32,000 nt of DNA from Planctomycetales bacterium (GTDB taxonomy: Bacteria > 4484-113 > JAFGCY01). The notes under the pieces were generated by a model. That model saw only the letters and a program-made list of their open reading frames with translations, was not told the DNA's origin and ran no database searches. The position numbers and the translations under genes are program-made. Shown one piece after another: positions 816 to 19,936 of the stretch (within the stretch, counting starts at the first letter, position 1; every line of letters starts with the position of its first letter). Location: the NCBI GenBank assembly GCA_022646745.1, contig CP060262.1, positions 2,670,001 to 2,702,000 of the forward strand, given 5' to 3'.

Positions 816-841
816 GCAGCGGCGCATACTAGAATAGTCTG

Positions 842-2833
842 ATGCGCCGGGTCGCTCCAGTCCTCATCTCAGCCCTGCTGGCAATAGCCGCACTGGTTCC
901 TGCCGCAGCCAGTGAGGATACCCAGGTCGATGGCGTGAGCGGACTGCTGTTCACTCCGACTGCCGAAGTGGTCAATGAAGGTCGTGCGGTCTTCACCTGG
1001 AGCCGCCACCTCAACACCACGATCCGCACCAACGGGGAGTTCTTTGAGCGCAGCTATGCGATGACGCTCGGCTACCTGCCGAATGTCGAAGTCGGCATGC
1101 GCTTCGCCGACTTCCCCGACCTGCCGGACAGCAACAACTCCACGAACTTCCAGGACCGCAGCATCAGTGCCAAGCTGCAGCTGTTCAATGAGGACGGCTG
1201 GCAGGGTGCCGTCGGTGCGATCGATCTCGCCGGCGACAGCCAGACCAATGAGGCGATGTACGGCGTGCTGGGCTACAACGGCATTGAGGACCTGGAACTG
1301 AGCGCAGGCTACGGCACTGACAAGCTGGACGGCTTCTTCGGCGGTGCGCGCTGGAGCCCCTTCGACCAGGCCAGCCTGGTCGGTGAATTTGTCAACGACC
1401 AGTTCAACTACGGCCTCGAGGTCCGGCCGCTGAAGGGCCTGACGCTGAAGGCCGGGCGCATCAATGAGGACGACGCCTACCAGGGCAGCTACTCCTTCCC
1501 GCTGGACCCGCGCGGCCAGGAACTGATCTGCTGCCCGGTCGCCATCGAGCGCTGTGAATGCCTTGCCACGGAACCATGTGACATCGCCGCCCAGGTGCGT
1601 GATGCACTGGTGGCTGAGTCATTTGAGAACGTGCTCGTCGGCACCGATGGCGACACGCTGGTGATCGAATACGAGAACCGCCGCTTCCGCGAACAGGTGG
1701 ACGGCCTGGCGGTGGCGGCATTGACGGCGGCGACCCACAGTGGCACAGGCATCACGCGCGTGGTGATCTCTCCGAAGCTTGAGGACGTGCCGCAGATGAG
1801 CTTCATCGCGGACATGGATGAGCTGCTCACCTTCCTTGAGGACCCGGCAGGCAGTTGCCAGAACTTCCTCAGTGTGCCGTACCGCTACAACATGTGCCCG
1901 GCGGACACCGTGTTTGCCAGTGAGGGCAACAAGCGGCCAGGCGCACTCGACGTGTCCGTGCGACCGACAAACAGCTTTGTGATCGCATCTCCATTCCAGC
2001 CCAGCTGGCGCACAGCCTTCGGGCTCGGACTGACTGAGGAACTGTCTCTGGCACGGGGCACCAAGCTGATTGCCCGCCAGAATATTCCCGTGACTGACGA
2101 CATCACCGAGAAGACCGAACCGGTGATGACGAACGCCTTCATCAACTGGAATGACAGCTGGGATGAGGACTTCTTCCTGCAGGCCCAGGCTGGCATGATC
2201 AGCCGCGGCAACTATGGTGGAGTGGCTGAAGCGGGCAAGTACTTTGACAACGACCGCTTCAAGCTCGGCGTCAGCGGCGCCTACATTGAGACGGATGACA
2301 ACGGCGATCCCGAGGACTCCATGATCCTCGGCGAGCTGGCGGTGTTTGAGCCTTCCCTGGACTTCAACATCAGCCTGCAGGGCGGCGAGTTCCTCGAGGG
2401 TGACGACGGTTTCCGCATCACGAGCACCCGCTACTTCGGCCCGACCCAGATCAGCTTCTTCGCCTACGACACCAACATGTCCAGCCCGGCCGGCGGATTC
2501 CGCATCTTCCTGCCGATCCCGCTGTACGACCAGGGCCGCCACGGCAGGTCACGGCTCGGCTGGGCTGACTACTACGGCTTCCAGTACCGCACGGACAGCG
2601 ACCCCTGGGGCAGTGTGCCGCTGCCTGGCTGGGACCTCGACCAGCTGCGGGAGCGCTTGCGCCCTGCCTACGTCAGCGAGCACTACGACGAATTCCGGCG
2701 CGCGGCCTGGCTCTACCTGGAGAACTCCTACTCGCCCTGCGAGCATTGCAGCCATGACCACGAAACAGAAGGGGCCGATGAGCTTGCCGCTGCAATGCCA
2801 GCCACGGAAGGGCAGGACGGCGCAGTTGAGTAG
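842..2833 (+). CDS. YjbH/GfcD-family outer-membrane beta-barrel protein
   Basis: 663-aa ORF with a type I signal peptide (LLAIAALVPAAAS|ED). The N-terminal GVSGLLFTPTAEVVNEGRAVFTWS matches the remembered E. coli YjbH start GGVGLLQTPTARMAREGELSLNY. The mid region GDTLVIEYENRRFR resembles YjbH GDTLYVTGEQVKYR. The C-terminal GGFRIFLPIPLYD resembles YjbH KGVYVSVPLDLFS. There is an extra Cys cluster, CCPVAIERCECLATEPC. Confidence 0.7.
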   Translation: MRRVAPVLISALLAIAALVPAAASEDTQVDGVSGLLFTPTAEVVNEGRAVFTWSRHLNTTIRTNGEFFERSYAMTLGYLPNVEVGMRFADFPDLPDSNNSTNFQDRSISAKLQLFNEDGWQGAVGAIDLAGDSQTNEAMYGVLGYNGIEDLELSAGYGTDKLDGFFGGARWSPFDQASLVGEFVNDQFNYGLEVRPLKGLTLKAGRINEDDAYQGSYSFPLDPRGQELICCPVAIERCECLATEPCDIAAQVRDALVAESFENVLVGTDGDTLVIEYENRRFREQVDGLAVAALTAATHSGTGITRVVISPKLEDVPQMSFIADMDELLTFLEDPAGSCQNFLSVPYRYNMCPADTVFASEGNKRPGALDVSVRPTNSFVIASPFQPSWRTAFGLGLTEELSLARGTKLIARQNIPVTDDITEKTEPVMTNAFINWNDSWDEDFFLQAQAGMISRGNYGGVAEAGKYFDNDRFKLGVSGAYIETDDNGDPEDSMILGELAVFEPSLDFNISLQGGEFLEGDDGFRITSTRYFGPTQISFFAYDTNMSSPAGGFRIFLPIPLYDQGRHGRSRLGWADYYGFQYRTDSDPWGSVPLPGWDLDQLRERLRPAYVSEHYDEFRRAAWLYLENSYSPCEHCSHDHETEGADELAAAMPATEGQDGAVE

Positions 2834-2917
2834 GCCCAAGTGTTCACCAAGGGGTGCTGCGCTAGTGTTCCTTGCTGTTCCCGGCTTTTCCGCTAGACTG
2901 TTATCAGGGATACCGCA

Positions 2918-3346
2918 ATGATTTGCAGGATAGCTCCGATTCAGGGTCTGGCCGTGATCCTGGCGGGAGGGTTGGCAGTTGGGTGCAATACGCATGGAAT
3001 CGGTGAACCGCAGTACCACAACGAGCAGCACAGCGTGTCCATCCTCGCGCCATCCGAGCTGGTGGCGGGGCAGGAGGTCACCTTCAGGCTGTATGGCGAC
3101 CGCTATGACAACCCGCTGTACGTCAGCTGGGACTTCGGCGGCGGTGCGCTGCCGAACCTCATTGTGGAGCAGAGCGCGGACAAGTCCGAGAATTCCGTCA
3201 CGGTGCTGCTCATCAATGACACCACCGAACCGGTGCAATATCTGCTCAACGTCGACGTTCGCAGTGACGAAGGCAAGGAAGGCACAGGCGTGCTGCGTTA
3301 TACGGTGCAGCCTGACCCGAACACTCCGCCAGCCGGCGACCAGTAG
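2918..3346 (+). CDS. truncated member of the lipoprotein family (PKD-like module only)
   Basis: 142 aa. Lipobox LAVG|CNT. PKD-like signature YVSWDFGGGALPN followed by a beta-rich stretch. It lacks the cadherin-like and C-terminal modules. Confidence 0.65.
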   Translation: MICRIAPIQGLAVILAGGLAVGCNTHGIGEPQYHNEQHSVSILAPSELVAGQEVTFRLYGDRYDNPLYVSWDFGGGALPNLIVEQSADKSENSVTVLLINDTTEPVQYLLNVDVRSDEGKEGTGVLRYTVQPDPNTPPAGDQ

Positions 3347-3370
3347 CTTGATACGCCCCGGGGGCCAGAC

Positions 3371-4654
3371 ATGCGCATCCTGACAACATTATTCTGCCTC
3401 GGATCCTGCCTGCTGATGGCTGCGCTTGCCTCCTGCGGTGCATCCAGCCCGCCCCCGCAGCAGGGCGCACCTCCGGTTGAGGCGATCATTGTCGCCCCGT
3501 TTGAGATGCGCGGTGGCAGCCAGGCTGTCTGGCGAGTCAACGTCAACGGTTACAACGGCCCCTTCACGATCCACTGGGACTTCGGCGGCGGGGCGGTTGT
3601 CAATGAGCATGACTTCAGCAATGAACTCAGCCCGAACCTGCTGCAGGTTGGCATGGTGAACGGCACTGAAGCGGTGAAGGAATACACCGTCACCGTCAGC
3701 GTGACCGACAAGGTCGGTGAGACTGATACCAGCACCTTCCGCTACCGGGTTGACCCGCCGGGTGATGAGCCCGACCCGGTTGACCCGCCGGTCAAGCCGC
3801 CTGTCGACCCGACCCCCGGCAACCGCGCACCGGTGATAGACAGCTTCAGCGTCAATAACGGTGTGCTGCAGGTGTCCTGTTCCGACAAGGATGGCGACGA
3901 TATCACCGTCAGCGTGGTCGACGAGTTCGGCAACGAATATCCTTCGCAGGAAGGGACGGAAACCCAGTTCGAGATCGACCAGTGGGTCGCATTCTGGCAG
4001 GCGGAGGTCAGCCTGGAGATCACGGCCAGCGACGGCCAGGACGCTACAAGCACTACCGCCACTTATGCACCGAAGCCGATCAGCATTGCTGATGACACGC
4101 TGTATGCGGTTGCCATGTCCGGCACGGCGCCATCTGTGCGAGACCCGCAGCAGGCCAGTGATGGGCAGTCCGTGCGGGTGGTGGTATTCACCGGCCCGAC
4201 CAAGCAGCCCTTCCAGCGGATGGCGTCTGTCGCCGTGACCTGCGAGGATGGCTCGGACTACGTGCTCGGCAGCTTTGATGCCGGAGCGCCTGACGGCAGC
4301 ACCGATGCAAATGGCCTGACGGGGATTGACGGGATCTGGCAACTGCTTGAGGCTGACGACCTGCAGTACAGCGCTGATGACCAGATCGGCGGCATCCACC
4401 GCCGTGACCTGCCCGGCAGCCGCGGGGCGCTGGACTTCAGCATCATCCCGCAGGGCGCCCTTGAGATAACTGGTGCTTATGGCGTGCTGTTCAGTTTCGA
4501 GATCGCATTCAGCGAGCCGGGCGAGTACCGCATCGGTTTCCAGCCCGTTGACACAATCAGCCGTACCTATTACCAGGATGACAGTGCCTCAAACGAATTC
4601 TTCTGGGGAGATGTGACGAACAGCACGGTGCCGAACATCATCACCGTGAACTAG
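3371..4654 (+). CDS. paralogous surface lipoprotein (PKD-like + cadherin-like + conserved C-terminal module), most divergent member
   Basis: 427 aa. Lipobox LAS|CGAS. Contains FTIHWDFGGGAVVN, a Pro-rich linker PPGDEPDPVDPPVKPPVDPTPG and SCSDKDGDDITVS. C-terminal module: DDTLYAVA...GVLFSFEIAFSEPGEYRIGFQPVDTISRTYYQDDSASNEFFWGDV...IITVN. Confidence 0.8.
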   Translation: MRILTTLFCLGSCLLMAALASCGASSPPPQQGAPPVEAIIVAPFEMRGGSQAVWRVNVNGYNGPFTIHWDFGGGAVVNEHDFSNELSPNLLQVGMVNGTEAVKEYTVTVSVTDKVGETDTSTFRYRVDPPGDEPDPVDPPVKPPVDPTPGNRAPVIDSFSVNNGVLQVSCSDKDGDDITVSVVDEFGNEYPSQEGTETQFEIDQWVAFWQAEVSLEITASDGQDATSTTATYAPKPISIADDTLYAVAMSGTAPSVRDPQQASDGQSVRVVVFTGPTKQPFQRMASVAVTCEDGSDYVLGSFDAGAPDGSTDANGLTGIDGIWQLLEADDLQYSADDQIGGIHRRDLPGSRGALDFSIIPQGALEITGAYGVLFSFEIAFSEPGEYRIGFQPVDTISRTYYQDDSASNEFFWGDVTNSTVPNIITVN

Positions 4655-4730
4655 GGATTACCGGGATATACCGAACAGGGATCTGACTGGGCCGCAAGCC
4701 GCGACAGGCGGCGTAACTGGGGAGGTCTGC

Positions 4731-5951
4731 ATGAAGCAGATGGGACTGATACTGGCAGTGCTGGTGCTTGCACTGGCAACGTCGTGCGATTCGCTCGTTC
4801 GCGATACTTTAAATGTAGGTCATGGTAGAGGTCATGGAGCAACAATCGACATTAGGAGTCCAGTTGCTACCGGACCCAATGCGCCAAGTCTGTTTGGCAA
4901 TGAGACAGCTGAATTCTCTGCTGATATCATCGGTGTGAATGGACCGTTCAATATCTCGTGGAGATTCGGAGGGGCTGCCGAGGACACAACAAGCGTTCTC
5001 TTTAACTCAGGTACGAGTACAGTTGAGGTGCTCCTGATTGATCTGGATGAAGAGACTACCTTTACCGCTACTGCTACTCTCACAGACAGTGCGGGAATTG
5101 CTTATTCTGACTCAGTTACATTCACTGTCGGACCAACCCAGAACATCCCACCTACGATTGATTCTCTGACATTCTCCGATGGAATCCTCACAGCTACTGC
5201 CTCAGATCCTGACAACGACTACCTGGAGTTTTCTGCGAAGGTGCTGTCTGGGGTGGTGCGCGTCAGCGGGCCATATAACACCACTGCCACCAGTGCCAGC
5301 TTCAGTCTGGTAAGCGAGGACATCCTTGCGGGAGGTAACTTCTCAGTCCAGGTCACCGTACAGGACGGCAGGGGAGGGGAGGACAGCGATACCTTCAACC
5401 AGGAATTCAAGGCCTTCCCGCTTGAACCCGACACCCTCTACGCCATTGCCACTTCGGACAGGACTTCCGCAGGCGGCAATGTCAGGGTGGTGGTTGCCAC
5501 CGGGGACACCGCCAATCCCTTCCAGTATGTCAACGGCTGCGGTGTAGTCTGTGAGAATGGGGCCAGCTATGCTTCCACAACATTCGACGTCGGCAACCCG
5601 GATGACACACCGGATGTCGGTTCAGCCAATCCGATTGACGGCGTCTGGGGCGACATGGGGGCCACGAGCTTCCTTCTGGCGCCTGACAACTTCATCACTG
5701 GCAAGGATCTCGGTAACGGCAGCAGCCGCACCGACTTCAATGTGACGCCGCTCGGTGGCAGTGACATCACCGCCAATGGCATCCTGTTCAGCTTTGAGTA
5801 CACCTTCGCGTCTGCGGGTACATACCATTTAGGCTTTGAAGCCGTGAACATAGTCAGCCGCACCTACTACACCGATGCCAGCCAGTCCGAGGACTTCTTC
5901 TGGTCTGACATCTCGAATGATCATCAGTACAACACGATTGTAGTGGAGTAG
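4731..5951 (+). CDS. paralogous surface lipoprotein (PKD-like + cadherin-like + conserved C-terminal module)
   Basis: 406 aa. SD GGGGAGG lies upstream. Lipobox LATS|CDS. Contains GPFNISWRFGGAAEDTTS, TASDPDNDYLEFSA and the C-terminal module FPLEPDTLYAIATSD...YNTIVVE. Confidence 0.85.
   Translation: MKQMGLILAVLVLALATSCDSLVRDTLNVGHGRGHGATIDIRSPVATGPNAPSLFGNETAEFSADIIGVNGPFNISWRFGGAAEDTTSVLFNSGTSTVEVLLIDLDEETTFTATATLTDSAGIAYSDSVTFTVGPTQNIPPTIDSLTFSDGILTATASDPDNDYLEFSAKVLSGVVRVSGPYNTTATSASFSLVSEDILAGGNFSVQVTVQDGRGGEDSDTFNQEFKAFPLEPDTLYAIATSDRTSAGGNVRVVVATGDTANPFQYVNGCGVVCENGASYASTTFDVGNPDDTPDVGSANPIDGVWGDMGATSFLLAPDNFITGKDLGNGSSRTDFNVTPLGGSDITANGILFSFEYTFASAGTYHLGFEAVNIVSRTYYTDASQSEDFFWSDISNDHQYNTIVVE
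5421..5951 (+). repeat. 531-bp near-identical direct repeat, copy A (3' part of the lipoprotein gene)
   Basis: Aligns without gaps to 6632-7162 at a constant offset of 1211 nt. I see only 2 mismatches in the first ~120 nt, then a dense patch of mostly synonymous differences around 5543-5585, then high identity again. Confidence 0.9.
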
Positions 5952-5953
5952 GC

Positions 5954-7162
5954 ATGAAGCATCTGACTTTAATGATGTTAATTCTATTCGGATGTGGATC
6001 AGTAGTTGGCTGTGAGACCCTGAATGTAGGTACCGACAACCCTCATACTCTGCAGATCACTCTCAGTGCACCTGTTGGCACTGGGCCAAATGCTCCTGGA
6101 CTTTGGAGTGGCGAATCCGCAACGTTTTCCGCTACGACAACTGAGTTCAGCGGACCTTTCGAGTTTGACTGGAACTTTGGCGGAGCTGCAGCGAATACAA
6201 CTTCCAGATTGGACTCTGCTGGAACAACCTCTGTAGGAGTTACCTTTGTTGATCTTGCAGCGCCGTCAGACTTCACTGCAACAGTGACAATGACAACCGG
6301 AGACGGTAGGCAGGCAAGCGACAGAGTGAATTTCTACGTATCTGCGGGGGAAAACTTCTTTCCTGTACTGGAATCACTGAGTATTGACAATGGAATTCTC
6401 ACAGCTATTGGCTCAGATAATGACGGCGACTCCCTGTACTTCGACGCATATGTCCTGTCAGGACAAATCCTGTTAGGTAAACCATTCAACACAACTGAAG
6501 TTAGTGCACAGTGGAAGGTAGAACTAAGTGACAAGTTTGTAGGATCAGGTTGGGAGATTCAAGTTTTTGTTGGTGACGGAACCGGTGCAAGCGATTCGGG
6601 CAAAATTTCAGGTGCTTTTGAACCATTTCATCTTGAACCCGACACCCTCTACGCCATTGCCACTTCGGACAGGACTTCCGCGGGCGGCAATGTCAGGGTG
6701 GTGGTTGCTACCGGGGACACCGCCAATCCCTTCCAGTATGTCAACGGCTGCGGGGTTGTGTGCGAGAACGGTGCTTCCTACGCCAGCCAGACCTTTGACG
6801 TCGGCAATCCGGATGACACACCGGATGTCGGTTCTGCCAATCCGATTGACGGCGTCTGGGGCGACATGGGGGCCACGAGCTTCCTGCTGGCCCCCGACAA
6901 CTTCATCACCGGCACCGACCTCGGCAATGGCATGAGCCGCACCGATTTCAATGTGACGCCGCTCGGTGGCAGTGACATCACCGCCAATGGCATCCTGTTC
7001 AGCTTCGAATACACCTTCGCCTCGGCAGGCACATATCACCTGGGCTTTGAAGCGGTGAACATCGTCAGCCGGACCTACTACACCGATGCCAGCCAATCCG
7101 AGGACTTCTTCTGGTCTGACATCTCGAATGATCATCAGTACAATGTAATTGTTGTGGAGTGA
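5954..7162 (+). CDS. paralogous surface lipoprotein (PKD-like + cadherin-like + conserved C-terminal module)
   Basis: 402 aa. Starts 2 nt after the previous stop. The lipidated Cys is probably VVG|CETLNVG, by alignment to the CDTLN of its paralogs. Contains FEFDWNFGGAAANTTS and GSDNDGDSLYFDA. The C-terminal 177 aa are almost identical to those of the preceding gene. Confidence 0.85.
   Translation: MKHLTLMMLILFGCGSVVGCETLNVGTDNPHTLQITLSAPVGTGPNAPGLWSGESATFSATTTEFSGPFEFDWNFGGAAANTTSRLDSAGTTSVGVTFVDLAAPSDFTATVTMTTGDGRQASDRVNFYVSAGENFFPVLESLSIDNGILTAIGSDNDGDSLYFDAYVLSGQILLGKPFNTTEVSAQWKVELSDKFVGSGWEIQVFVGDGTGASDSGKISGAFEPFHLEPDTLYAIATSDRTSAGGNVRVVVATGDTANPFQYVNGCGVVCENGASYASQTFDVGNPDDTPDVGSANPIDGVWGDMGATSFLLAPDNFITGTDLGNGMSRTDFNVTPLGGSDITANGILFSFEYTFASAGTYHLGFEAVNIVSRTYYTDASQSEDFFWSDISNDHQYNVIVVE
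6632..7162 (+). repeat. 531-bp near-identical direct repeat, copy B
   Basis: Partner of 5421-5951. Begins at the same CTTGAACCCGACACCCTCTACGCC and ends at the stop codon. Confidence 0.9.
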
Positions 7163-7165
7163 AGA

Positions 7166-7585
7166 ATGAAGCACATAATTTGTATTTGCATTATTCTGAC
7201 GACCCTGATGATCGTCTCCTGTTCTTCAGGCAAGGCAACGAGTGGAAATGTCTGGCAGGGCTGGGTCAGCATCCAGAGGTTCCTTGCCACTGACAGTGAG
7301 AGCGGTTCGATTCCAGTAGCCGGGAAACAGGCGACTCTCAGGGCTTTCGTTCTCACAATGGCGCGACCAATCAAGATCCGCTGGGAATTCGATGCAGCAA
7401 TTGATCCCATCGTCACGGATTACGCACAGGACAGTCTGGTGGAGACGGAGGTTCTGCTTCCCGCGAGTGAGGATGGTTACAACGTGAGATGCACCATGTA
7501 CGTGATCTACAACGACGAGGAAATCCACAGTTCTAGCAATGACTTCTTCGTCATTGGCACCGGCGAAATCCTGAACGCAGAATAG
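7166..7585 (+). CDS. truncated, degenerate member of the lipoprotein family (PKD-like module only)
   Basis: 139 aa. Lipobox MIVS|CSSG. Contains a degenerate signature KIRWEFDAAIDP. AT-richer than its neighbours. No C-terminal module. Confidence 0.55.
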   Translation: MKHIICICIILTTLMIVSCSSGKATSGNVWQGWVSIQRFLATDSESGSIPVAGKQATLRAFVLTMARPIKIRWEFDAAIDPIVTDYAQDSLVETEVLLPASEDGYNVRCTMYVIYNDEEIHSSSNDFFVIGTGEILNAE

Positions 7586-7608
7586 TTGCTTGAAGGGAGG
7601 GAAAAACC

Positions 7609-8847
7609 ATGTTCAGATTGTCAATCGCGATAATGCTGCTGTCAGTGCTGTGTTCCTGCAATGGTGGCGGGGGAAGCAAGTCGCAACCCTTCAACCACAA
7701 GCTGCAAATCACCCTCACTGACCCCGTCGGGCTCGGCAAGGATGCGCCGCTGCTGGCCGGTGGACAGCAGGCCCGCTTTTCAGCCGTTGTCACAGGGGTG
7801 AACGGCCCTTTCAACATCTCCTGGAACTTCGGCGGGGGCGCAGACAATACGACCAGTAGTCTCGCAGTGGCCGGTACAAGCACGGTGGACGTGCCGATGA
7901 AGGTGATCAGCGGCCAGCAGGACTACACAGCAACAGCGACGGTGACCGACGCTGCAGGAGTCAGCCAGACCTCAGCCATTAACTACCAGCTGCTGGGTTG
8001 GAACAATTCCGCACCGCTGATCGAGGACCTGACCCTGAGCAGCAGCAACCTCCTGACTGTGACAGCTTCTGACGAAGATGGCGACGAACTGAGCTTCAGC
8101 CTGCGCAGGGGGATAGATGACAAGGACCTCGGTCCGCCGGACAGCGTGGATGGCAACGTAGCAGTCTGGGACCTGAGCGATGAGCTGGCCCCGAGCCCGA
8201 ATGACATCCTCGCCAATGGCAATCTCAGCTTCGGCGGCTTCATCGCCACGGTTACGGATGAGCATGGTGCCAGCACTGAAAGCGAGCAGCTCGGAGGAAA
8301 CTTCGAGGCCTTCCCGTTGGAGGATGACACACTCTATGCGATTGCCAGTCGAAGGTCCGCAAAAGTTGGAAATCGCGTCAGGATATTCGTGGCAACCGGT
8401 GATACAGCCCAGCCATTCCTGTATCTCAATAGTTGCGCCGTTGTTGTCGAGAATGATGCCAGGCTGGTACCAAACTCACTTGATGGCGGCTCGTTTGATG
8501 ATGATGGCGCTGCGGACACGCCGATGGATGGTGTCTGGGCTGACGTTGCGGCAAGCAGTATCTTCGTGGATGCCGGTTTCGGTGGTTTCCTGGAGGGAAC
8601 TGACCTCGGTGATGGCACTTATTACATTCCCTTCCACGTAACGCCCTTCAACGGGACACCAATCACTGCAAATGGCTTGCTCTTCAGTTTTGAACTGGAA
8701 TTCCGCAAACCGGGGACCTACCATCTTGGCTTCCTGGAGCACAATGTCATTAGCCGGACCTACTACTCGGATTCTCTGGATGGCCCGGACCACTTCTGGT
8801 CAGACATCAGTAACAACCACGACTACAACACGATCGTGGTGGAGTAG
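7609..8847 (+). CDS. paralogous surface lipoprotein (PKD-like + cadherin-like + conserved C-terminal module)
   Basis: 412 aa. SD GGGAGGG. Lipobox VLCS|CNGG. Contains GPFNISWNFGGGADNTTS and TASDEDGDELSFS. C-terminal module: FPLEDDTLYAIAS...ANGLLFSFELEFRKPGTYHLGF...HFWSDISNNHDYNTIVVE. Confidence 0.85.
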   Translation: MFRLSIAIMLLSVLCSCNGGGGSKSQPFNHKLQITLTDPVGLGKDAPLLAGGQQARFSAVVTGVNGPFNISWNFGGGADNTTSSLAVAGTSTVDVPMKVISGQQDYTATATVTDAAGVSQTSAINYQLLGWNNSAPLIEDLTLSSSNLLTVTASDEDGDELSFSLRRGIDDKDLGPPDSVDGNVAVWDLSDELAPSPNDILANGNLSFGGFIATVTDEHGASTESEQLGGNFEAFPLEDDTLYAIASRRSAKVGNRVRIFVATGDTAQPFLYLNSCAVVVENDARLVPNSLDGGSFDDDGAADTPMDGVWADVAASSIFVDAGFGGFLEGTDLGDGTYYIPFHVTPFNGTPITANGLLFSFELEFRKPGTYHLGFLEHNVISRTYYSDSLDGPDHFWSDISNNHDYNTIVVE

Positions 8848-8851
8848 GAGT

Positions 8852-10087
8852 ATGCATCTTGTTGCCAGAACAGTTTTCCTGCTGCCTGTGCTGTGTTGCC
8901 TGCTAATGCTGCCGGCCTGCGGCTCGGGCGGCGAGAAGCAGGGAAGTGTCGATCCACTGGCCGTTACCTTACATCATCCTGTCAGTACCGGGTCTGACTT
9001 CCCGGGACTTTATGGTTATCAAACTGCAAATATCACTGCTGACATCAGCGGAGGTGTTGCACCTTACAGTCTGACCTGGTTCATGGGAGGAGCTGAAGAG
9101 GACCAGTTCACTGACCTTGATGCCGCAGGTACTGCCATGATCTCAGTCCAGTGGCCATACTTGACTCAGGCAACTTTCTATAATCTGCAACTGCAGGTCA
9201 GTGACGCAGCTGGCAACGTAAGCCAGTCAGGTGTAGAGATCACGGTTGGCCAAGCTCAGGATGTCTGCCTCATATCCATTGACAGCCTCACATACAGCGA
9301 TGGACTGATCCGCGTTAGCGGCAGTGATGCCGATGGTGGCGCGCTGACATTTGCCGCGCAACTGGATTCCGGTGAAGTCATCATCACTGGCCCGTTCAAT
9401 GAAACTGCGACATCAGCGGAGTTCGTTGTTAAGCCCATTGATGTGCTGGAAGGCGGAAACTTCACCGTTACGGTCAGTGCCACTTGCGAGTTAGGTTTCG
9501 AGAATGCCTCAGACTCAGTCTCCGGCTCCTTCGATGCATTCCCATTGGCGGATGACAATCTGTACGCCATTGCCACGACGAACCGGGTGAAAGTTGGAGA
9601 GCCTTTGCTGGTTGTTGTAGCAAGCGGAAAGACTGTTAGTCCGTTTGAATTGGTCAACGTTACGATTTCGTGTGAATCTGGAGCTGAGATCGTCTGGGGA
9701 TCTGGTGATATTGGCATCCCAGACGAAGATGGGCTGCCGGATCAGCCATATGATGGGATCTGGGCTGAGTTGGAAGCTGGTCAGGTGGTGTTTGATCAAC
9801 CTTCACGAGGCGGTTTCATGCCTGTCTTCGATTTTGGTGATGGACCACATTACCCATTCAGGCTACGTATTCATGAAGGACTACCTGTTGCCTCAGTTGG
9901 AATCCTCTTCAACTATCAGTACGTGTTCCATGAGCCTGGCACCTATAGACTGTCAATTTTGGAAAATGAGACTATTCCAACTGATTTTCCGTCCACCTTC
10001 TATAGAGAGTTCAGCACTGGTCCGGACCACTTCTGGTCCGACATCAGCAACAACCATGCCTACAACACGATTGTGGTGGAGCTATGA
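8852..10087 (+). CDS. paralogous surface lipoprotein (PKD-like + cadherin-like + conserved C-terminal module)
   Basis: I chose the internal ATG at 8852 (MHLVARTVFLLPVLCCLLMLPA|CGSGG), which is preceded by GGAGTAGGAG. The track start at 8672 would overlap the previous gene by 176 nt. Contains YSLTWFMGGAEED, GSDADGGALTFAA and ...HFWSDISNNHAYNTIVVEL. Confidence 0.8.
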   Translation: MHLVARTVFLLPVLCCLLMLPACGSGGEKQGSVDPLAVTLHHPVSTGSDFPGLYGYQTANITADISGGVAPYSLTWFMGGAEEDQFTDLDAAGTAMISVQWPYLTQATFYNLQLQVSDAAGNVSQSGVEITVGQAQDVCLISIDSLTYSDGLIRVSGSDADGGALTFAAQLDSGEVIITGPFNETATSAEFVVKPIDVLEGGNFTVTVSATCELGFENASDSVSGSFDAFPLADDNLYAIATTNRVKVGEPLLVVVASGKTVSPFELVNVTISCESGAEIVWGSGDIGIPDEDGLPDQPYDGIWAELEAGQVVFDQPSRGGFMPVFDFGDGPHYPFRLRIHEGLPVASVGILFNYQYVFHEPGTYRLSILENETIPTDFPSTFYREFSTGPDHFWSDISNNHAYNTIVVEL

Positions 10088-11301
10088 GCAGACTAAGCTC
10101 TAAATTAGGTTTCGCTGTTTTCCTGATGGCAATATGCCTGACAGCAGCTTGTGGCAACGGAAAATCCGGTACGGTGGAATTGTCTGTTGAACTCATGCAA
10201 CCTATAGGAACCGGCAGTTTCAGCAGCAATCCACTCGCTCAGCAACCTGGTAGATTCTCCGCCCTGGTCAGTGGTGGCACGGCACCGTATGAGCTTGACT
10301 GGCAGTTTGGTGGATGTGCTGATAACCAGGCTGCCGAAGTCACTGAGGCTGGCATTGTGGAGGCCGACGTGATCTTTTATAACCTGGATGCACCTGCGAC
10401 ATTTACAGCCACAGTTACGGTGGTGGATGCCATTGGCAACAGCGATGTTGATTCCGTCACATTCACTGTTATGGTAGGGACCGATTTGTGCTGGCCGTCC
10501 ATAGATTCGGCGAGATACGAGGATGGCATCATCTCTGTGCACGGTAGTGATCCGAGCGGGAATTCTCTCTACTTTGTCGCAGAGCTGGCCAGTGGCAACG
10601 TGACTGTTGAAGGTCCCTTTAATGAAACTGCGGTCTCTGCAGAGTTCCATGTCAAGGTAAACGACATCCTTGAAGGGGGTAACTTTGTGGTTTCTGTAAC
10701 GGCCAGTTGCGTTGAACTTCCAGGATGGGGCACCGACACAACAGATGTCTTCGGCTCCTTCGATGCCTTTCCGCTGGCGGATGACACTCTGTATGCGATT
10801 GCCACCCAGACCCAGGCCGCTGTCGGCGAGCCGGTGCGCATCGTGGTTGCCACGGGCGACACGGCGTCGTCGTTCCAGTACCTCAATTCCTGCATCCTCA
10901 CCTGGCAGGTGGGAGGCAGCTATGTGGGCCAGTCCTTCGACATCGGCGCGCCGGATGATGTGCCGGAACAGGCAGTGCCGATAGACGGAGTCTGGGGTGA
11001 CATGGGGGCGACGAGCTTCCTGCTGAATTTATTCCCAATCGAAACCATGCCGATCGGAAACGGTCTTCTCGGGACCGGCTTCTACGTCACCCCGCTGGGC
11101 GGCTCGGACATCACAGCCAACGGCCTGCTGTTCAACTTCCAGATGGAGTTCGCGGAACCAGGCACCTATACCATCGGTATCTTGGATAACCCGGAAAGTG
11201 TGGTTTCCCGTACCTACTACCAGGACAGTACGGCAGCAGAAGACTACTTCTGGTCCGACATCAGCAACAACCATGCCTACAACACGATCGTGGTGGAGTA
11301 G
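10084..11301 (+). CDS. paralogous surface lipoprotein (PKD-like + cadherin-like + conserved C-terminal module)
   Basis: 405 aa. ATGA start/stop overlap with the previous gene. Lipobox LTAA|CGNG. Contains YELDWQFGGCADNQ, GSDPSGNSLYFVA and FPLADDTLYAIAT...YFWSDISNNHAYNTIVVE. Confidence 0.85.
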   Translation: MSRLSSKLGFAVFLMAICLTAACGNGKSGTVELSVELMQPIGTGSFSSNPLAQQPGRFSALVSGGTAPYELDWQFGGCADNQAAEVTEAGIVEADVIFYNLDAPATFTATVTVVDAIGNSDVDSVTFTVMVGTDLCWPSIDSARYEDGIISVHGSDPSGNSLYFVAELASGNVTVEGPFNETAVSAEFHVKVNDILEGGNFVVSVTASCVELPGWGTDTTDVFGSFDAFPLADDTLYAIATQTQAAVGEPVRIVVATGDTASSFQYLNSCILTWQVGGSYVGQSFDIGAPDDVPEQAVPIDGVWGDMGATSFLLNLFPIETMPIGNGLLGTGFYVTPLGGSDITANGLLFNFQMEFAEPGTYTIGILDNPESVVSRTYYQDSTAAEDYFWSDISNNHAYNTIVVE

Positions 11302-11382
11302 GGGTGGCTGGCCGGAAGTGCAAGGCAACCCAATGCCGCAGTTTGGACCGGAATTCAGGATTACTTACTAAGGAGGACAGGA

Positions 11383-11586
11383 TTGGCGCCGATAGAGAGG
11401 GGAATTGCGGAGTTTGACCGGGATGTAGCCTGCAATTTCTGCCCGGTACTTCACAGTACAGGGGAAATTATGTACCATCTAGGATGTTCACCGCTGGGTC
11501 AGGGGAATCCTGGACAGTTCGTGGATGACCCGGGTGTCGGACACCTGGTGTCCAGGTTCGGGCGAACTACCGCGACCCGATGGTGA
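11383..11586 (+). CDS. hypothetical small protein (67 aa, TTG start); doubtful
   Basis: AGGAGG (11371-11376) lies 6 nt upstream of TTG 11383, inside the 475-bp gap of the array. There is no recognisable motif and the codon usage is unremarkable. Confidence 0.3.
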   Translation: MAPIERGIAEFDRDVACNFCPVLHSTGEIMYHLGCSPLGQGNPGQFVDDPGVGHLVSRFGRTTATRW

Positions 11587-11687
11587 AATCATGGTAGTAT
11601 TTATTGTTCAGGTGTGACTATATTAATAAGGTATGAATCGGCTGTATTATCCGTTCGTCACGGAATTTACTTTTGTGACAGTTTCTG

Positions 11688-11716
11688 TTGCGGTTTAACT
11701 GAGTATCGGATATAAT
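11688..11716 (+). promoter_or_regulatory. sigma70-type promoter candidate for the last paralog
   Basis: TTGCGG (11688-11693), 17-nt spacer, perfect TATAAT (11711-11716). It sits in the AT-rich stretch of the window, about 60 nt upstream of the GTG start. Confidence 0.45.
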
Positions 11717-11776
11717 TGCCAGACTTAAACCTGTACCGTTCCGACACACCTGTGTATGTGGTTAAGGAGGAATGTT

Positions 11777-12982
11777 GTGAAAAACTTTATCGTCCTGGTG
11801 GCACTTGGGCTTCTCGCTCTTGTGTCAAGCTGCGATACTCTTAACATCGGCAGTGGCCAGCCGCAGAGGCTGTCCATCGAGCTGAGCGCTCCGGTGGCAA
11901 CCGGTGCTAACGCACCGGGCCTGTTCGGTTCTGAGACTGCTACGTTTTCCGCTGCCATTATTGGTGTGAACGGACCGTTCAACATCTCTTGGAACTTCGG
12001 CGGCGCCGCCACCAACACGACCAGCACCCTGGCCGTGGCCGGCACCAGCACCGTCAGCGTGACCTTCGTTGACCTCGCTGCTGCCACTGACTTCACCGCC
12101 ACCGCGACCGTCACCGACGGCGCCGGCGTGAGCCAGTCTGATTCCGTGACCTTCAACGTGGGCGCTACCCAGAACCAGAGCCCGAGCATCGACAGCCTGA
12201 CCTTCGCGGGCGGCACGATCTCCGTCACCGGTTCTGATCCGGATGGCGACAGCCTGACCTTCAGCGCTTCCCTTGACAGCGGCGATGTGACCGTGAGTGG
12301 CCCGAATGGTGCCAACGCGACCAGCGCCAGCTTCGGCGTGAGCCCCAACGACATCCTTGCCGGCGGTAACTTCACCGTGACCGTGACGGCTGATGACGGC
12401 AAGGGCGGCACCGCCTCCGATTCCGTCAGCGGCAGCTTCGACGCCTTCCCGCTGGCTGATGACACCCTGTATGCAATCGCTACCGCTTCCAGCGCCAGCG
12501 CTGGCGGTAACGTCCGCATCGTGATCGCCACCGGTGACACCGCCAACAGCTTCCAGTACCTGAACGGCTGCGGCGTGGTCTGCGAGAACGGCGCTTCCTA
12601 TGCCGCCACCTCCTTCGACGTCGGTACCCCGGATGACACTCCGGACGTTGGCTCCGCCAACCCGATCGACGGCGTGTGGGGCGACATGGGCGCCACCAGC
12701 TTCCTGCTGGCTCCGGATAACTTCATCACCGGCACCGATCTCGGCGACGGCACCAGCCGTACCGACTTCAACGTCACCCCGCTGGGTGGTAGTGACATCA
12801 CTGCGAACGGTCTGCTCTTCAACTTCGAGTACACCTTCGCCAGCGCTGGCACCTACACCCTTGGTTTTGAGGCCGTGAACGTTGTGAGCCGCACCTACTA
12901 CCAGGACAGCACTGCTGCGACGGACTTCTTCTGGGGCGACATCAACAACACCCACGACTACAACACCATTACCGTGAACTAG
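11777..12982 (+). CDS. paralogous surface lipoprotein, probable highly expressed copy
   Basis: GTG 11777 lies 6 nt after a consensus AAGGAGG (11764-11770). The track's ATG at 11756 is the alternative start. Lipobox LVSS|CDT. Contains GPFNISWNFGGAATNTTS and GSDPDGDSLTFSA. The C-terminal module is about 85-90% identical in protein to the 4731 and 5954 genes but recoded with C/G-ending codons. Confidence 0.85.
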   Translation: MKNFIVLVALGLLALVSSCDTLNIGSGQPQRLSIELSAPVATGANAPGLFGSETATFSAAIIGVNGPFNISWNFGGAATNTTSTLAVAGTSTVSVTFVDLAAATDFTATATVTDGAGVSQSDSVTFNVGATQNQSPSIDSLTFAGGTISVTGSDPDGDSLTFSASLDSGDVTVSGPNGANATSASFGVSPNDILAGGNFTVTVTADDGKGGTASDSVSGSFDAFPLADDTLYAIATASSASAGGNVRIVIATGDTANSFQYLNGCGVVCENGASYAATSFDVGTPDDTPDVGSANPIDGVWGDMGATSFLLAPDNFITGTDLGDGTSRTDFNVTPLGGSDITANGLLFNFEYTFASAGTYTLGFEAVNVVSRTYYQDSTAATDFFWGDINNTHDYNTITVN

Positions 12983-12999
12983 TAATTAGCTCGAACACA

Positions 13000-13064
13000 G
13001 GTAACAGGAACCAGGCCCGGTTCGGATGTGGAGTAATCCGCGTCCGGCCGGGCCTGCCGTTACC
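13000..13064 (+). other. long imperfect intercistronic stem-loop
   Basis: GGTAAC...CAGGCCCGG (13012-13020)...CGGAT/ATCCG...CCGGGCCTG (13048-13056)...GTTACC. There is no U-tract after it, so it is not a canonical terminator. Confidence 0.4.
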
Positions 13065-13087
13065 ACCCCCCGGATGATGCAGGCCCA

Positions 13088-13117
13088 TTGTCCGGAAAAA
13101 CAGGAATCCGGTACAAT
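13088..13117 (+). promoter_or_regulatory. weak promoter candidate for the 1035-aa gene
   Basis: TTGTCC (13088-13093), 18-nt spacer, TACAAT (13112-13117). AAGGAG lies just before ATG 13196. Confidence 0.25.
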
Positions 13118-13195
13118 TAATGTTATTGGACTCCCTGTTCAATTCTGTGGGCTGCTAGCTGCCCTGAGGCGGCCGGCCCCGAGAAGGAGAGAAGC

Positions 13196-16100
13196 ATGAC
13201 TTTACGTAAGATGTTTACCGGCGTGCTCTGCATTCTCATCCTGCTGATCAGCGCGAGCTGCTCCAACAGCAAGAATGTTGGACTGTCCCAGCCGGATGAC
13301 CAGCGGAACACCACCGGTGTCAGCGTCGATTCCTTTGAGATCACCCGCTACAACGCGGCTGGTTTCGAGGATGCAAGCCTCAACCAGAGCATCGATGCTT
13401 ACATTGAGCAGGTGGGATCCGAGACTGCATTGGTCATCAGCGTTGATGAGCCGGATGTGGATCGCACGATTGCGCTCAACATCGACTTCGACGGCGTCAA
13501 CATGCATTACGAGCGCACCGAGTTCCACGGTCTGCTTGGCAATGATGACGATGTGCTGGGTGCCAGTTTCGGCCTGACTGAAAGTGTCCAGCTTGGCCAG
13601 ACGGCCATCCGTGACTACGATCCGGGCAGCATCAGTGGCCGCTTCGCCACTGTGTACTTCGCCCCCGGCGCGAGCCGTACGGCGAGTGCAATTCCCGGTG
13701 ATGTCTACAAGAGCAGCACCGGTGTTGCCGTCAACCGTTGCGGTGACAACGCCAGCTTCGTGGCTGACGAGGAAACCGAGAATGAGGCCTGGTTCACCAA
13801 TGGCTGGATGATGGCTGACGGTGACCAGAACGGCCAGTGCACGATTGCCGACATCACCCCGATCGGCATCTACCTGAACCAGAGCTGTGAGACCAACCCG
13901 CTCGCGACCCGTGCGGACTATGACAACAACGGCCAGGTTACGATTTCCGAGCTGACCCCGCTGGGCGTACACCTCAATGAGGGTGTGGCAAGTTATCGTG
14001 TTGGCCTGCGTGATGACGGTGATACCGGCACCACGCTGTCTGCAGAGAAGACCGTTGATCCCAGCGCGGACGCGATTGCCGCATCCGGCACTCCGGCGGT
14101 GGCTGATCTGCGCACGATCTTCCGTCATTACAACGTGGCATCCCTTTTCACCCCTGGTGAAATCGCGGCTGCCAACGTTAATGGCACCAACGGTGTCGAG
14201 ATCTGCGTGATTCCGACCAACACCAACTCTGCCAATGGCACCGGCACCCTGGCATTCGTGCCCTGGGGTGGCACAGTTGTTGGTCAGGATGATGAAATCG
14301 TTGTCACCAACTTCGACATCCAGATGGTGGGTGTCGGCGGCGGCAGCGGTGATGACAGCAACATCTTCGACAGCGGCATCAGCGGCGGTGACGTCACTGC
14401 CAACGCTGACGTGAGCTTCCAGGTGAACGCAATCGAGGGTACCTTCAACGGCCTTGACTTCGATGCCACCACCCTGCCAGAGGGCATGGACGCTGCTCAC
14501 TACGCCAATACCCTGACTGCTGTGCGAGACAATGCGAACTGGACCTTCGGCACTGCCGGAGCTGCCGGCTTCCGCAGTACCTCCGCCTGGGTGACTGACG
14601 GTGCGGGTAATGACCTTGGAGGCGTGGGCGACCCCGGCGCCGGTGTGGTCTTCCCGGATTACGACCCCGAGTCTGACGAGTTCAGCCCCGAGGGTACCCT
14701 GAATGTGAACCTCGCTGCCGCAGCCTCCCTGGCGACCGGCACCGTGGCCAGCAAGAACTACAAGGTCGTCGTGCTTTCCGAGCGTGATTACAACTGGACC
14801 GTGGATGTCCTCCGCGACCCGCAGCAGGCCACCTTTGGCCCGATCCTGAAGCAGGGCTTCGACCCGCAGGATGAGTACGCGCTTGTCATCGGTACCCGTT
14901 CCTTCTTCTTCACCGCCGATTGGGGCGATCTTGGCGTTCCCGCCAACTTCGACAGCATCGAGATGGAGATCTGGAAGGTCGAGGGCACCGGCCCGGGCAA
15001 CTGCTCCCGTGTCAACGACTTCACCTTCACCGAAGGTACCCCCGGTACCGGTGAGTTCGGCATTCGTGAGAACACTGAGAACCCCGGCGAGTACGTGTTT
15101 GAGTACGTCGTCAACGGTGCAAACCTGCAGGGTAGCAGCCAGTACGTGGTGCGCTGGTTCAACGGCGTTGAATGGTCCTCCATCAACATGCCCGAGAACA
15201 AGACCATCCCGTCCGGTCCTGCCCCGGCTGCCGCTGACCTGACCAGCATCCCGAACGCGGGCGGCTACAAGGGCAGCGCGAAGGTCGACTTCCTGCAGAT
15301 CCTCTACCCGAACCCGAAGATCCGCCGCTGGAGCGACGTGTTCCCGAACCCCGAGACTGAGTCAGTCGACGTTGAAAAGGGCCTCGACAACGACGGCGTC
15401 CAGGTTGACAAGACCCTGGCCTTCAATGACATTCTGCGCACCAACGGTGATGAGTTCGCGATCTTCGTGACCCCGATCGACAGCCCGCAGGGCTTCTCGA
15501 TCTGGCCCCAGGTCCTGATCAAGAACTTCACCGCCACCGGCGCCAGCGATGTCACCAGTGCTGACATCCCGCTTGCCACCCCGAGTGGCCCGATCTACTG
15601 GTCAGCCTCGGGCGCCAGCGCGATCATCGTCGCCCAGCACGGTCTTGGCCGAGTTGTGGTGGACATCGCCGGTCTTCCCACCGATGACGGTGAATTCGGC
15701 CCGATCAACTACGGTTTCGGCCTGTTCAGCCCGCAGGGTGTGGATTACCTTGAGGTTGGTGAAGGCACCTTCACCATGTCCCCGGTGGATGGCACCGTGG
15801 CCCCGAACGCGATCAACTGGGGTATCGACGCCTTCGACCGCGAGGAGCGCGACCTTGATAACGGTGATTACAGCAACCACATCCTCAACGGTTCCTTCGT
15901 GAACGACCCGGTCCAGCCCTTCGTGCTGTGGATCGAGTTCAACGGCGGTAACGTCTACGACTGGGAGCAGAACGAGGAGAAGGTCTGGAAGCTCAACGGC
16001 TCGCTGGACAACATCTATGTCCAGGTCAAGGACGTTGACCAGCCTGCTGATGTCCGCATCATGGAGGTTGGCCTGCGCCTTGTGGGTGTGACCCCGACCG

Positions 16101-16326: not shown

Positions 16327-16356
16327 GGCCCCCCGCCCCGGCGGGGGGCCTTTTTG
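16327..16356 (+). terminator. rho-independent terminator
   Basis: GGCCCCCCG (16327-16335) pairs with CGGGGGGCC (16342-16350), followed by TTTTTG. It lies 24 nt after the stop of the 1035-aa gene. Confidence 0.85.
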
Positions 16357-19933: not shown

Positions 19934-19936
19934 GAG

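Follow-up and report, generated by a model that had tools for sequence, protein, structure and literature searches.

Introduction

The locus described here raises the question of what a bacterium does with nine consecutive genes for related lipoproteins. It lies in a 32,000-nt stretch of DNA from Planctomycetales bacterium (GenBank assembly GCA_022646745.1, contig CP060262.1, positions 2,670,001 to 2,702,000 of the forward strand), which is referred to below as the window and which supplies the coordinates used throughout. An earlier note, made from the sequence alone, had described a nine-gene tandem array of paralogous lipoproteins at 2918-12982, all on the plus strand, and had taken its pattern of divergence to be typical of variable surface-exposed families whose anchoring or interaction domain is conserved. 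The array is borne out by our analysis, but this interpretation of it is not. The C-terminal module shared by seven of the products probably has a cohesin-like fold, and genes of this family recur next to a gene encoding a dockerin-like module. Our preferred reading, which we hold tentatively and at a little under an even chance, is that the array encodes a lipid-anchored, non-cellulosomal assembly of the cohesin-dockerin type at the cell envelope. Below, homologous loci in other assemblies carry L numbers and homologous proteins carry P numbers.

Nine lipoproteins built on a fixed plan

All nine open reading frames (ORFs) are present at the positions first reported (Table 1), and each of them opens with a hydrophobic signal peptide that runs up to a lipobox cysteine (9/9). 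The seven full-length members (401-427 aa) align end to end on the three-module plan proposed for them, and their alignment displays the motifs that had been quoted as W-x-F-G-G, SD-x-DG-D, DTLYAIA, SRTYY, FW-x-D, and NTIVVE. Hidden Markov models (HMMs) of the family were built from the seven window copies and 65 database homologues (72 in all), using the rows long enough for each half. The N-terminal HMM matches all nine array genes, both short ones included, and the HMM of the C-terminal module (C-module) matches all seven full copies with E=1e-51 to 1e-87. As the short genes at 2918-3346 and 7166-7585 match the N-terminal HMM at profile positions ~1-135 of 222, they are true members consisting of module 1 only, as had been claimed, and not chance ORFs. 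The first has orthologues in L003 and L004 at 66% identity. The second shares 88% identity with its counterpart in L001, at a ratio of nonsynonymous to synonymous substitution rates (dN/dS) of 0.31, and is therefore maintained rather than decaying.

Modules 1 and 2 had been described as resembling immunoglobulin (Ig), PKD, and cadherin domains, and profile matches to solved structures agree with that description, identifying both as beta-sandwiches of this kind. Pfam matches to modules 1 and 2 of the window proteins stay below cutoff (K319L-like_PKD, 21.9 bits against 27; PKD, 20.7 against 23.5; Big_9, 20.0 against 23.6), and a few homologues have precomputed matches to PF22352 or PF17963. When the full-length profile was compared with PDB sequences, positions in the N-terminal half matched the Ig-like proteins 9e99_J (E=4e-8) and 9d7z_J (2.6e-6), and the same region matched phage decoration proteins (1e-4), protocadherins (3e-4), and the PKD domain of KIAA0319L (9e-4). 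Member 2 alone has a proline-rich linker (PVDPPVKPPVDP) joining modules 1 and 2, encoded by a weak 13-nt tandem repeat of 3.3 copies at 3745-3791.

Across the family, a lipobox is present in 145 of 199 family representatives, many of the rest being fragments. It is also found in both lipoproteins encoded on either side of the array, and the lipid cysteine is invariant in the alignment; these proteins are predicted from their sequences to be acylated. The earlier note had cautioned that Asp at position +2 after the cysteine would mean inner-membrane retention in E. coli. Asp does occupy this position in the members starting at 4731 (CDS) and 11777 (CDT), and Glu does in the member starting at 5954 (CET), but D/E is the commonest +2 residue of the family (60 of the 145 lipobox-bearing members) and lies inside a conserved motif, and we have therefore set the caveat aside as an Enterobacterial rule. 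The motif in question, C-[DE]-T-[LK]-N-[IV]-G at the lipid cysteine, occurs in 57 of the same 145 members, and a similar C-x-x-x-[KQ]-N-V-G is found in the large lipoprotein encoded downstream of the array and in its homologues, which are otherwise unrelated to the family. This post-Cys motif may be a lineage-specific lipoprotein sorting signal.

A predicted cohesin-like fold in the C-terminal module

The C-module had not been recognized as a named family, and at the level of sequence it stays outside of any: neither Pfam nor NCBIfam holds a model that reaches its cutoff on any of the nine members. Structure prediction, which had been suggested as a check, assigns it to a well-known fold class all the same. 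An AlphaFold2 model of the C-module of member 9, based on a 42-sequence alignment, is all-beta, with a predicted local distance difference test score (pLDDT) of 94.9 and a predicted template modeling score (pTM) of 0.91. In a Foldseek comparison of this model with the PDB, cohesins fill all of the first 36 places (E=1.4e-5 to 1e-3, probability 1.00), and they include cellulosomal cohesins of types I, II, and III as well as C. perfringens 2jh2 and Archaeoglobus 2xdh. The highest target-normalized template modeling (TM) score, 0.59-0.61, is that to 2jh2. By these matches the model agrees with the nine-stranded beta-sandwich (jelly-roll) of solved cohesins, which makes it likely, as far as a model can tell, that the C-module has a cohesin-like fold.

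This result changes the role that had been suggested for the conserved module. The anchor of these proteins is the N-terminal lipid, and the predicted cohesin-like fold is that of an interaction module rather than an anchoring domain. With the lipid at the N terminus, the two Ig-like modules would form a stalk and the C-module a membrane-distal, cohesin-like head, while the short copies would present one Ig-like domain and no head.

A dockerin-like module in the neighboring lipoprotein

A candidate partner for these heads is encoded directly downstream of the array, in the gene for a large lipoprotein (Table 1). The N-terminal domain of this protein (13301-13681) was modeled from a 9-sequence alignment with pLDDT ~66-93, and its best structural matches are again cohesins (E=1.5e-3, root-mean-square deviation [rmsd] 3.4-5.3 Å over ~100-110 residues), with one CBM3 also among the matches. 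Alignment of the array C-module with this domain by hhalign gave a probability of 0.1%; as they lack sequence homology, the two cohesin-like domains represent separate families.

The segment that follows (13790-14008) agrees with the makeup expected of a dockerin, namely a tandem duplicate of a ~22-residue segment containing an EF-hand-like Ca2+ loop and a helix. Its EF-hand loops, DGDQNGQCTIAD and DYDNNGQVTISE, are canonical and 12 residues long, with 35 residues from the start of one to the start of the other; both are kept in 10 homologues, and a helix comes right after each loop in the model (residues 182-190 and 215-223, where pLDDT is just 60-70). When ten homologous copies of this 73-aa segment were made into a profile, its four best matches in the PDB were solved dockerins (4fl4_A, 2.7e-5; 4wi0_B, 4.9e-5; 4u3s_B, 2.1e-4; 2y3n_B, 4e-4), and these matches cover both repeats and rank above calmodulins. 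Pfam Dockerin_1 (PF00404) gives weak matches in seven of the ten homologues, the best at E=3.5e-4. A search of 5.8 billion sequences with the 73-aa profile, which is too short for such a database, returned one fragment. The remaining ~735 aa at the C-terminal end of this protein (14096-16300) share 31-35% identity across distant homologues and have neither a Pfam family nor a significant PDB sequence match; this part is likely the "cargo" of the system.

Gene order and domain fusions in relatives

A gene of the family followed within ~300 nt by a gene for a protein with cohesin-like and dockerin-like modules is found in the window and in L001, L002, L004, L005, L008, L009, L011, L013, L015, L016, L020, L024, and L030. 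Many relatives share more than this pair. Family members are immediately preceded by a YjbH-like gene in L001-L004, L008, L011, L013, L016, and L020, the last five of which are divergent loci (members ~40-50% identical to P0036, the lead sequence of the alignment), and the gene for the 239-aa lipoprotein is also found upstream in the divergent L008, L013, and L016. The window copy of the YjbH-like gene scores 92.7 bits against PF06082 (cutoff 24, E=3.4e-26, profile positions 208-603 of 658). The resulting cassette consists of a ~235-aa lipoprotein, a YjbH/GfcD barrel, one to nine cohesin-like lipoproteins, and a ~1000-aa lipoprotein. In L005 a five-gene array is detached from its large-protein gene. 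Misassembly or an annotation artefact can be ruled out as the source of the array, which recurs in the independent assemblies L001, L002, L003, and L004.

The two kinds of module also occur within single proteins. P0083 has two C-modules together with a Dockerin_1 domain that scores 32.5 bits, above the Pfam cutoff of 22.9; P0088 joins a dockerin-like segment, a beta-propeller, and two C-modules; a protein encoded in L028 fuses the C-module and the dockerin-like module; and a 1261-aa lipoprotein of L031 has a cohesin-like N-terminal domain, a dockerin-like module, and four tandem C-modules. Four C-modules are likewise found in tandem in the scaffoldin-like P0082. The association with dockerin-bearing proteins that is expected of a cohesin is thus seen both as adjacency in at least 10 divergent loci and as fusions.

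Lipoproteins with two to four tandem C-modules (P0082, P0083, P0084, P0088, L028 3340-7014, and L031 2209-5994) make up a set of multi-module relatives with scaffoldin-like architectures, some of which add dockerin-like modules, a PQQ-type beta-propeller, or CarboxypepD_reg domains. L031 encodes further dockerin-like modules in a 477-aa lipoprotein (ORF 12239-13672) and at 14127-14339. A different context is found at L006 (10565-14116) and L007 (4071-7622), where a single-copy member is directly upstream of two multihaem cytochrome genes (Paired_CXXCH_1 and Cytochrome_C554-like) and of a gene for an unassigned 571-aa protein, with a Y1 transposase gene upstream. This context may hint at a surface complex for extracellular electron transfer.

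Several observations weigh against a cohesin-dockerin reading of the array. Pfam Cohesin (PF00963) finds no match in 42 C-modules even at E<=10, the C-module profile has no match among PDB sequences, and hhalign of the C-module with the validated C. thermocellum cohesins 1aoh_A, 2ccl_A, and 3kcp_A gave a probability of 0.7%. The query-normalized TM scores of the C-module model are only 0.33-0.48 with rmsd of 5-11 Å, and generic beta-sandwiches (pilin, integrin) appear among its Foldseek matches at E=1e-3. Given the weak TM scores, high rmsd, unrelated sandwiches, and null hhalign result, we call the C-module cohesin-like in fold but do not place it within Pfam Cohesin. In the window, the dockerin-like module scores 13.3 bits against Dockerin_1, under the gathering cutoff of 22.9. 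At the level of the locus, one dockerin-like module faces seven sockets, and the cohesin-like domain of the large lipoprotein could itself be the dockerin partner instead of the array. Finally, the family members at L006/L007, L026, L027, and L029 are without a large neighbor.

Copy number, selection, and alternative functions

The family is small, restricted, and uncharacterized. When 1.84 billion cluster representatives were searched exhaustively with a family profile, only 323 clusters emerged at E<=1e-3 (clusters being defined at 50% identity), and all 66 of the 66 near-full-length homologues are annotated as "hypothetical" or are unnamed. The closest species-representative genome is labeled "UBP7 HKST-UBA03", after a candidate phylum, UBP7, that has been reported from saline activated sludge (PMC8495973).

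Among relatives, the number of copies ranges from one to nine. The window and L001 each have seven full and two short copies, in the order short, three full, short, four full in the window and short, two full, short, five full in L001; L004 has six full and two short, and L002 has fewer, one of them frameshifted. The prospect that relatives would carry only a single copy, which the earlier note had regarded as telling against its interpretation, is realized in the L008 cassette, L011, L013, L016, L020, and L006, but arrays recur in L005 (five copies plus one) and in L009/L010 (at least four). Best-match pairs between the window and L001 are 58-92% identical in amino acid sequence, with argG at 73% and the large lipoprotein at 83%. 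These pairs with a related metagenome-assembled genome (MAG) are mosaic: that of the 5954 copy is 56% identical in the N-terminal half and 88% in the C-module, and that of the 7609 copy is 88% identical in the N-terminal half and 58% in the C-module. In all best-match pairs dN/dS is 0.09-0.31 in both halves, with the caveat that dS is saturated in some segments and that best-match pairs are perhaps not all orthologues. On these values we reject positive selection. Within the array, members 3 and 4 have C-modules with 96% identity in protein but only ~90% in DNA, and these modules share 80-82% (protein) and 76% (DNA) with that of member 9; as the differences among the three are mostly synonymous, they suggest an older duplication or conversion under purifying selection and not a very recent conversion. 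Together the data point to copies that arise and die and to halves exchanged between paralogues, under purifying rather than diversifying selection.

These patterns bear on the idea of a variable surface-antigen family, in which divergent, exposed N-terminal halves would provide antigenic or phage-receptor diversity and the conserved C-terminal domain would anchor or interact. Copy number and content do turn over among the window, L001, and L002, some copies have no clear orthologue, and the mosaic histories of N-terminal and C-terminal halves suggest recombination between copies. The C-module is also the best conserved part within the genome (mean pairwise identity among the seven full copies 53%, compared with 36% for module 1 and 37% for module 2), although it is not nearly constant as had been stated, since its identities range over 33-96% and only members 3, 4, and 9 come close to constancy. 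What makes this idea the least probable of those considered, and very unlikely in our estimation, is that the low dN/dS values extend to both halves with no hypervariable segment, that the C-module is the more diverged half in two best-match pairs, so that either half can diverge more, and that several divergent relatives carry just one copy. The conserved C-module would moreover be the most exposed part, the anchor being the N-terminal lipid. No inverted repeats of an invertible promoter and no simple-sequence slippage tracts were found at the locus, where the weak 13-nt repeat in the linker of member 2 is the sole tandem repeat; neither the switch elements nor the diversifying selection characteristic of antigenic or phase variation was thus detected. 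The tight packing and shared orientation of the array genes indicate that they are probably co-expressed rather than switched.

Two other proposals differ in what the lipoproteins would bind. Proteins of the Bacteroidota SusE/SusF type consist of a lipid anchor, an Ig-like N-terminal domain, and one or more distal beta-sandwich domains, a layout that the array proteins recall, and the array could accordingly be imagined as ligand or glycan binders in which an Ig-like stalk bears a C-terminal beta-sandwich resembling a carbohydrate-binding module (CBM), with the paralogues covering different ligands. A beta-jelly-roll is common to cohesins and several CBM families, the CBM3 match of the neighboring N-terminal domain fits this view, and the single-copy locus beside multihaem cytochromes could mean binding to a mineral or another surface. 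We regard it as rather unlikely, given that the top 36 structural matches of the C-module are cohesins and not CBMs or SusE/F, that no SusE/F structure is found among its top 50 fold matches, and that neither the window nor the conserved cassette has a glycoside hydrolase, TonB-dependent transporter, or SusC/D gene, which leaves the array outside the polysaccharide utilization locus context in which the CBM-like domains of SusE/F are found. The recurrent fusion and adjacency with dockerin-like modules is also what protein docking, not glycan binding, would predict. Alternatively, the array products may be periplasm-facing accessories of the YjbH/GfcD barrel that help to export a lipid-anchored polymer, with the cohesin-like and dockerin-like modules merely holding the machine together. 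A YjbH-family gene is kept immediately upstream in at least five divergent lineages, and there is a precedent in the group 4 capsule system of E. coli, where GfcD works with a lipoprotein partner, GfcB, which it binds together with GfcC (PMC8592465), and where the second barrel of GfcD has been modeled as a lateral gate through which lipid-anchored cargo passes (PMC11494523). The cassette and the +/-10 kb covered in relatives are, however, devoid of glycosyltransferases and of homologues of gfcA, gfcB, gfcC, gfcE, etp, and etk; it would be unusual for one barrel to have seven to nine paralogous accessories; and the barrel is lacking at the P0036 contig, the L005 array, and L006. This makes an accessory role quite unlikely, a shade more so than glycan binding.

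A proposed envelope assembly

The assembly of the cohesin-dockerin type that we favor builds on gene anatomy, lipoboxes, family membership, predicted folds, the dockerin-like signal, gene order, and domain fusions, all of which are directly supported. The array is the expanded third part of a conserved four-part cassette. Its C-modules would act as membrane-tethered sockets that capture the dockerin-like module of the large lipoprotein neighbor in a protein-protein docking of the cohesin-dockerin type that is probably Ca2+-dependent. Further dockerin-bearing partners are probably encoded elsewhere in the genome, and sockets and partners together would build a multi-protein layer on the envelope. 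The sockets would have been multiplied here by tandem duplication and by the exchange of halves between paralogues. The binding itself, the domain that serves as partner, the site of the complex (surface or periplasm), and its role are what we infer from these observations.

The barrel gene suggests an extension of this model. We know of no YjbH/GfcD-type double barrel that has to date been tied to anything but lipid-anchored polysaccharide. Since GfcD binds a lipoprotein and is modeled as a lateral gate, and since the GfcD-family barrel here adjoins lipoproteins with no polysaccharide genes in view, the barrel might deliver lipoproteins to the surface. In a role like that of Slam, to which it is unrelated, it could use its lateral gate to pass the lipid anchors of its neighbors to the outer leaflet with the post-Cys motif as sorting signal, after which cohesin-like and dockerin-like modules would self-assemble into a lipid-anchored scaffold in the style of a cellulosome. 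The cassette would then amount to a self-contained system for surface display. We consider this full scenario speculative and its chances slim.

Comparison with known systems

A comparison of the array with the anchoring scaffoldins of cellulosomes (OlpA, OlpB, and SdbA of C. thermocellum; ScaB and ScaC of A. cellulolyticus) shows both a common principle and marked disparities. Like the proposed sockets, scaffoldins are cell-anchored and offer cohesins to dockerin-bearing partners. Cohesins of OlpA (3ul4_A), ScaB (4wi0_A), and ScaA (3fnk and 3ghp) are among the closest structures to the C-module, and the four tandem modules of P0082 and L031 mimic the scaffoldin layout. In contrast, the array has no detectable sequence similarity to Pfam Cohesin and no carbohydrate-active enzymes nearby. 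Scaffoldins are held by an SLH domain or a sortase signal, whereas the array proteins have an N-terminal lipid and a probable diderm host, and the repeats of scaffoldins lie within one polypeptide, whereas those of the array are separate tandem paralogous genes. Scaffoldins are known from Firmicutes, while the array belongs to an uncultured lineage whose closest MAG is labeled as candidate phylum UBP7.

The non-cellulosomal cohesin of Archaeoglobus fulgidus (2xdh) and the cohesin-like modules of C. perfringens (2jh2, 2vo8, and 2w1n) are cohesin-type folds that function outside of cellulose degradation and that are among the nearest structural matches. Cohesin and dockerin modules often share one protein, as they do in the 1035-aa neighbor. 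Non-cellulosomal cohesins and dockerins are nevertheless recognized by Pfam models, unlike the array C-module and the sub-threshold dockerin-like module of the window, and a lipoprotein context, a tandem gene array, and a linkage to YjbH are undescribed for them.

The barrel encoded at 842-2833 is in the same Pfam family, PF06082, as the E. coli proteins GfcD and YjbH of gfcABCDE-etp-etk and yjbEFGH, but the neighbors in the array locus are Ig-like/cohesin-like and dockerin-like lipoproteins instead, with no polysaccharide export genes. In Neisseria, the gene for Slam, a DUF560 barrel, adjoins those for the surface lipoproteins that it delivers (TbpB, LbpB, and fHbp). This is a functional analogy alone, as the barrel here is of the YjbH type with no homology to DUF560, and the array proteins have no TbpB-like fold. 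Four traits set the locus apart from these systems: a lipid anchor, a probable diderm host in a candidate phylum, sockets encoded by separate paralogous genes in tandem, and an association with a YjbH barrel.

Features of the locus and the wider window

Table 1. Coordinates of the array genes, the flanking cassette genes, and associated features in the window. N-half and C-module E values are those of the family HMMs.
Feature	Position	Strand	Description
239-aa lipoprotein	96-815	+	First cassette gene; lipobox; homologues at the same position in L002, L003, L004, L008, L013, L016
YjbH/GfcD outer-membrane beta-barrel	842-2833	+	663 aa; signal peptide without lipobox; Pfam PF06082
Short member 1	2918-3346	+	142 aa; module 1 (Ig/PKD-like); HMM match 2951-3331, E=3.8e-19, profile 8-136
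Full member 2	3371-4654	+	427 aa; C-module 4073-4651; N-half E=1e-50, C-module E=4e-61
Full member 3	4731-5951	+	406 aa; C-module 5406-5948; N-half E=2e-80, C-module E=9e-87
Full member 4	5954-7162	+	402 aa; C-module 6617-7159; HMM matches; product identical to NCBI H7A35_10550
Short member 5	7166-7585	+	139 aa; divergent module 1 only; HMM match 7166-7558, E=4e-11, profile 1-130
Full member 6	7609-8847	+	412 aa; C-module 8302-8844; HMM matches; weak Pfam PKD and PKD_4 in module 1
Full member 7	8852-10087	+	411 aa; most divergent copy; C-module 9530-10081; N-half E=1e-63, C-module E=8e-51
Full member 8	10084-11301	+	405 aa; start overlaps stop of member 7 (ATGA); C-module 10759-11298; product is NCBI H7A35_10570
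Leader before member 9	11570-11776	+	Non-coding; hairpin 11657-11679 (GTCAC-N13-GTGAC), TATAAT box, AAGGAGG
Full member 9	11777-12982	+	401 aa from GTG; nearest family consensus; C-module 12437-12979 (the one modeled); N-half E=6e-92, C-module E=2e-87
Large lipoprotein	13196-16303	+	1035 aa; last cassette gene; cohesin-like N-domain 13301-13681, dockerin-like 13790-14008, ~735 aa of no known fold
Terminator-like hairpin	16327-16350	+	10-bp all-GC stem, then TTTTTGCTTT; closes the 12-gene cluster
Post-Cys motif sites	4785-4811, 6011-6031, 11834-11854, 13259-13285		Family-wide in P0001-P0214

The array is part of a cluster of 12 same-strand genes (96-16303) headed by a promoter-like site at 25-53. 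Its first gene, for the 239-aa lipoprotein, gave no Pfam, NCBIfam, or PDB sequence match. Junctions within the array had been given as 2-24 nt or overlapping, which holds for most of them, including the overlap at 10084, but not for two gaps of 76 and 475 nt; in order, the junctions measure 24, 76, 2, 3, 23, 4, -4, and 475 nt. The 475-nt spacer sets member 9 apart from the rest of the array. The GTG at 11777 is the likeliest start of this member, as had been proposed, and lies 6 nt past an AAGGAGG Shine-Dalgarno sequence; a longer ORF from ATG 11756 is probably unused.

The leader before member 9 has kept ~95-100% identity between the window, L001, L002, and L004 (counterparts at ~9815-10021, ~9815-10021, and ~15709-15915, respectively), while the adjoining proteins share 73-92%. 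Its last ~100 nt differ by one mismatch among the four genomes, and its hairpin contains one compensatory pair, A-U to G-C. Rfam searches of the whole window and of the leader found no match. It probably serves member 9 and the large lipoprotein as a constrained promoter plus 5' leader, or else as a site bound by a regulator.

Downstream, a same-strand run of ORFs (16607-24200) begins with a gene for argininosuccinate synthase, an assignment supported by an L004 counterpart with Pfam Arginosuc_synth; the rest of the run, judging from sequence motifs, we take to be argC-, argF-, argB-, argE-, and argH-like. This arginine-gene run appears unrelated to the array. Beyond it are genes for a secreted zinc metallopeptidase-like protein with weak Peptidase_M10 and M54 matches (24205-24993, minus strand), a BD-FAE-type esterase (25046-25939, minus strand; E=3e-33), and a MalT-like regulator with helix-turn-helix and tetratricopeptide repeat regions (29574-30920, plus strand), none of which has a conserved linkage to the cassette.

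Conclusions

The pairing of cohesins and dockerins is among the strongest and most reused protein connectors in biotechnology, and nearly all knowledge of it comes from the cellulosomes of Firmicutes. The locus described here belongs to an uncultured lineage of wastewater and sediment and exposes a sequence family of ~323 clusters that profile libraries do not see, lipid-anchored, amplified, and linked to a dockerin-like partner and a YjbH barrel. Even without binding, the analysis names a predicted fold for this family, defines the cassette in which it occurs, and removes the antigenic-variation reading. If binding is true, cohesin-dockerin assembly would reach the lipoproteins of diderm bacteria, the array would supply seven natural paralogous sockets for studies of specificity and for the design of orthogonal connectors, and the poorly understood YjbH/GfcD family would gain a testable, protein-related function.

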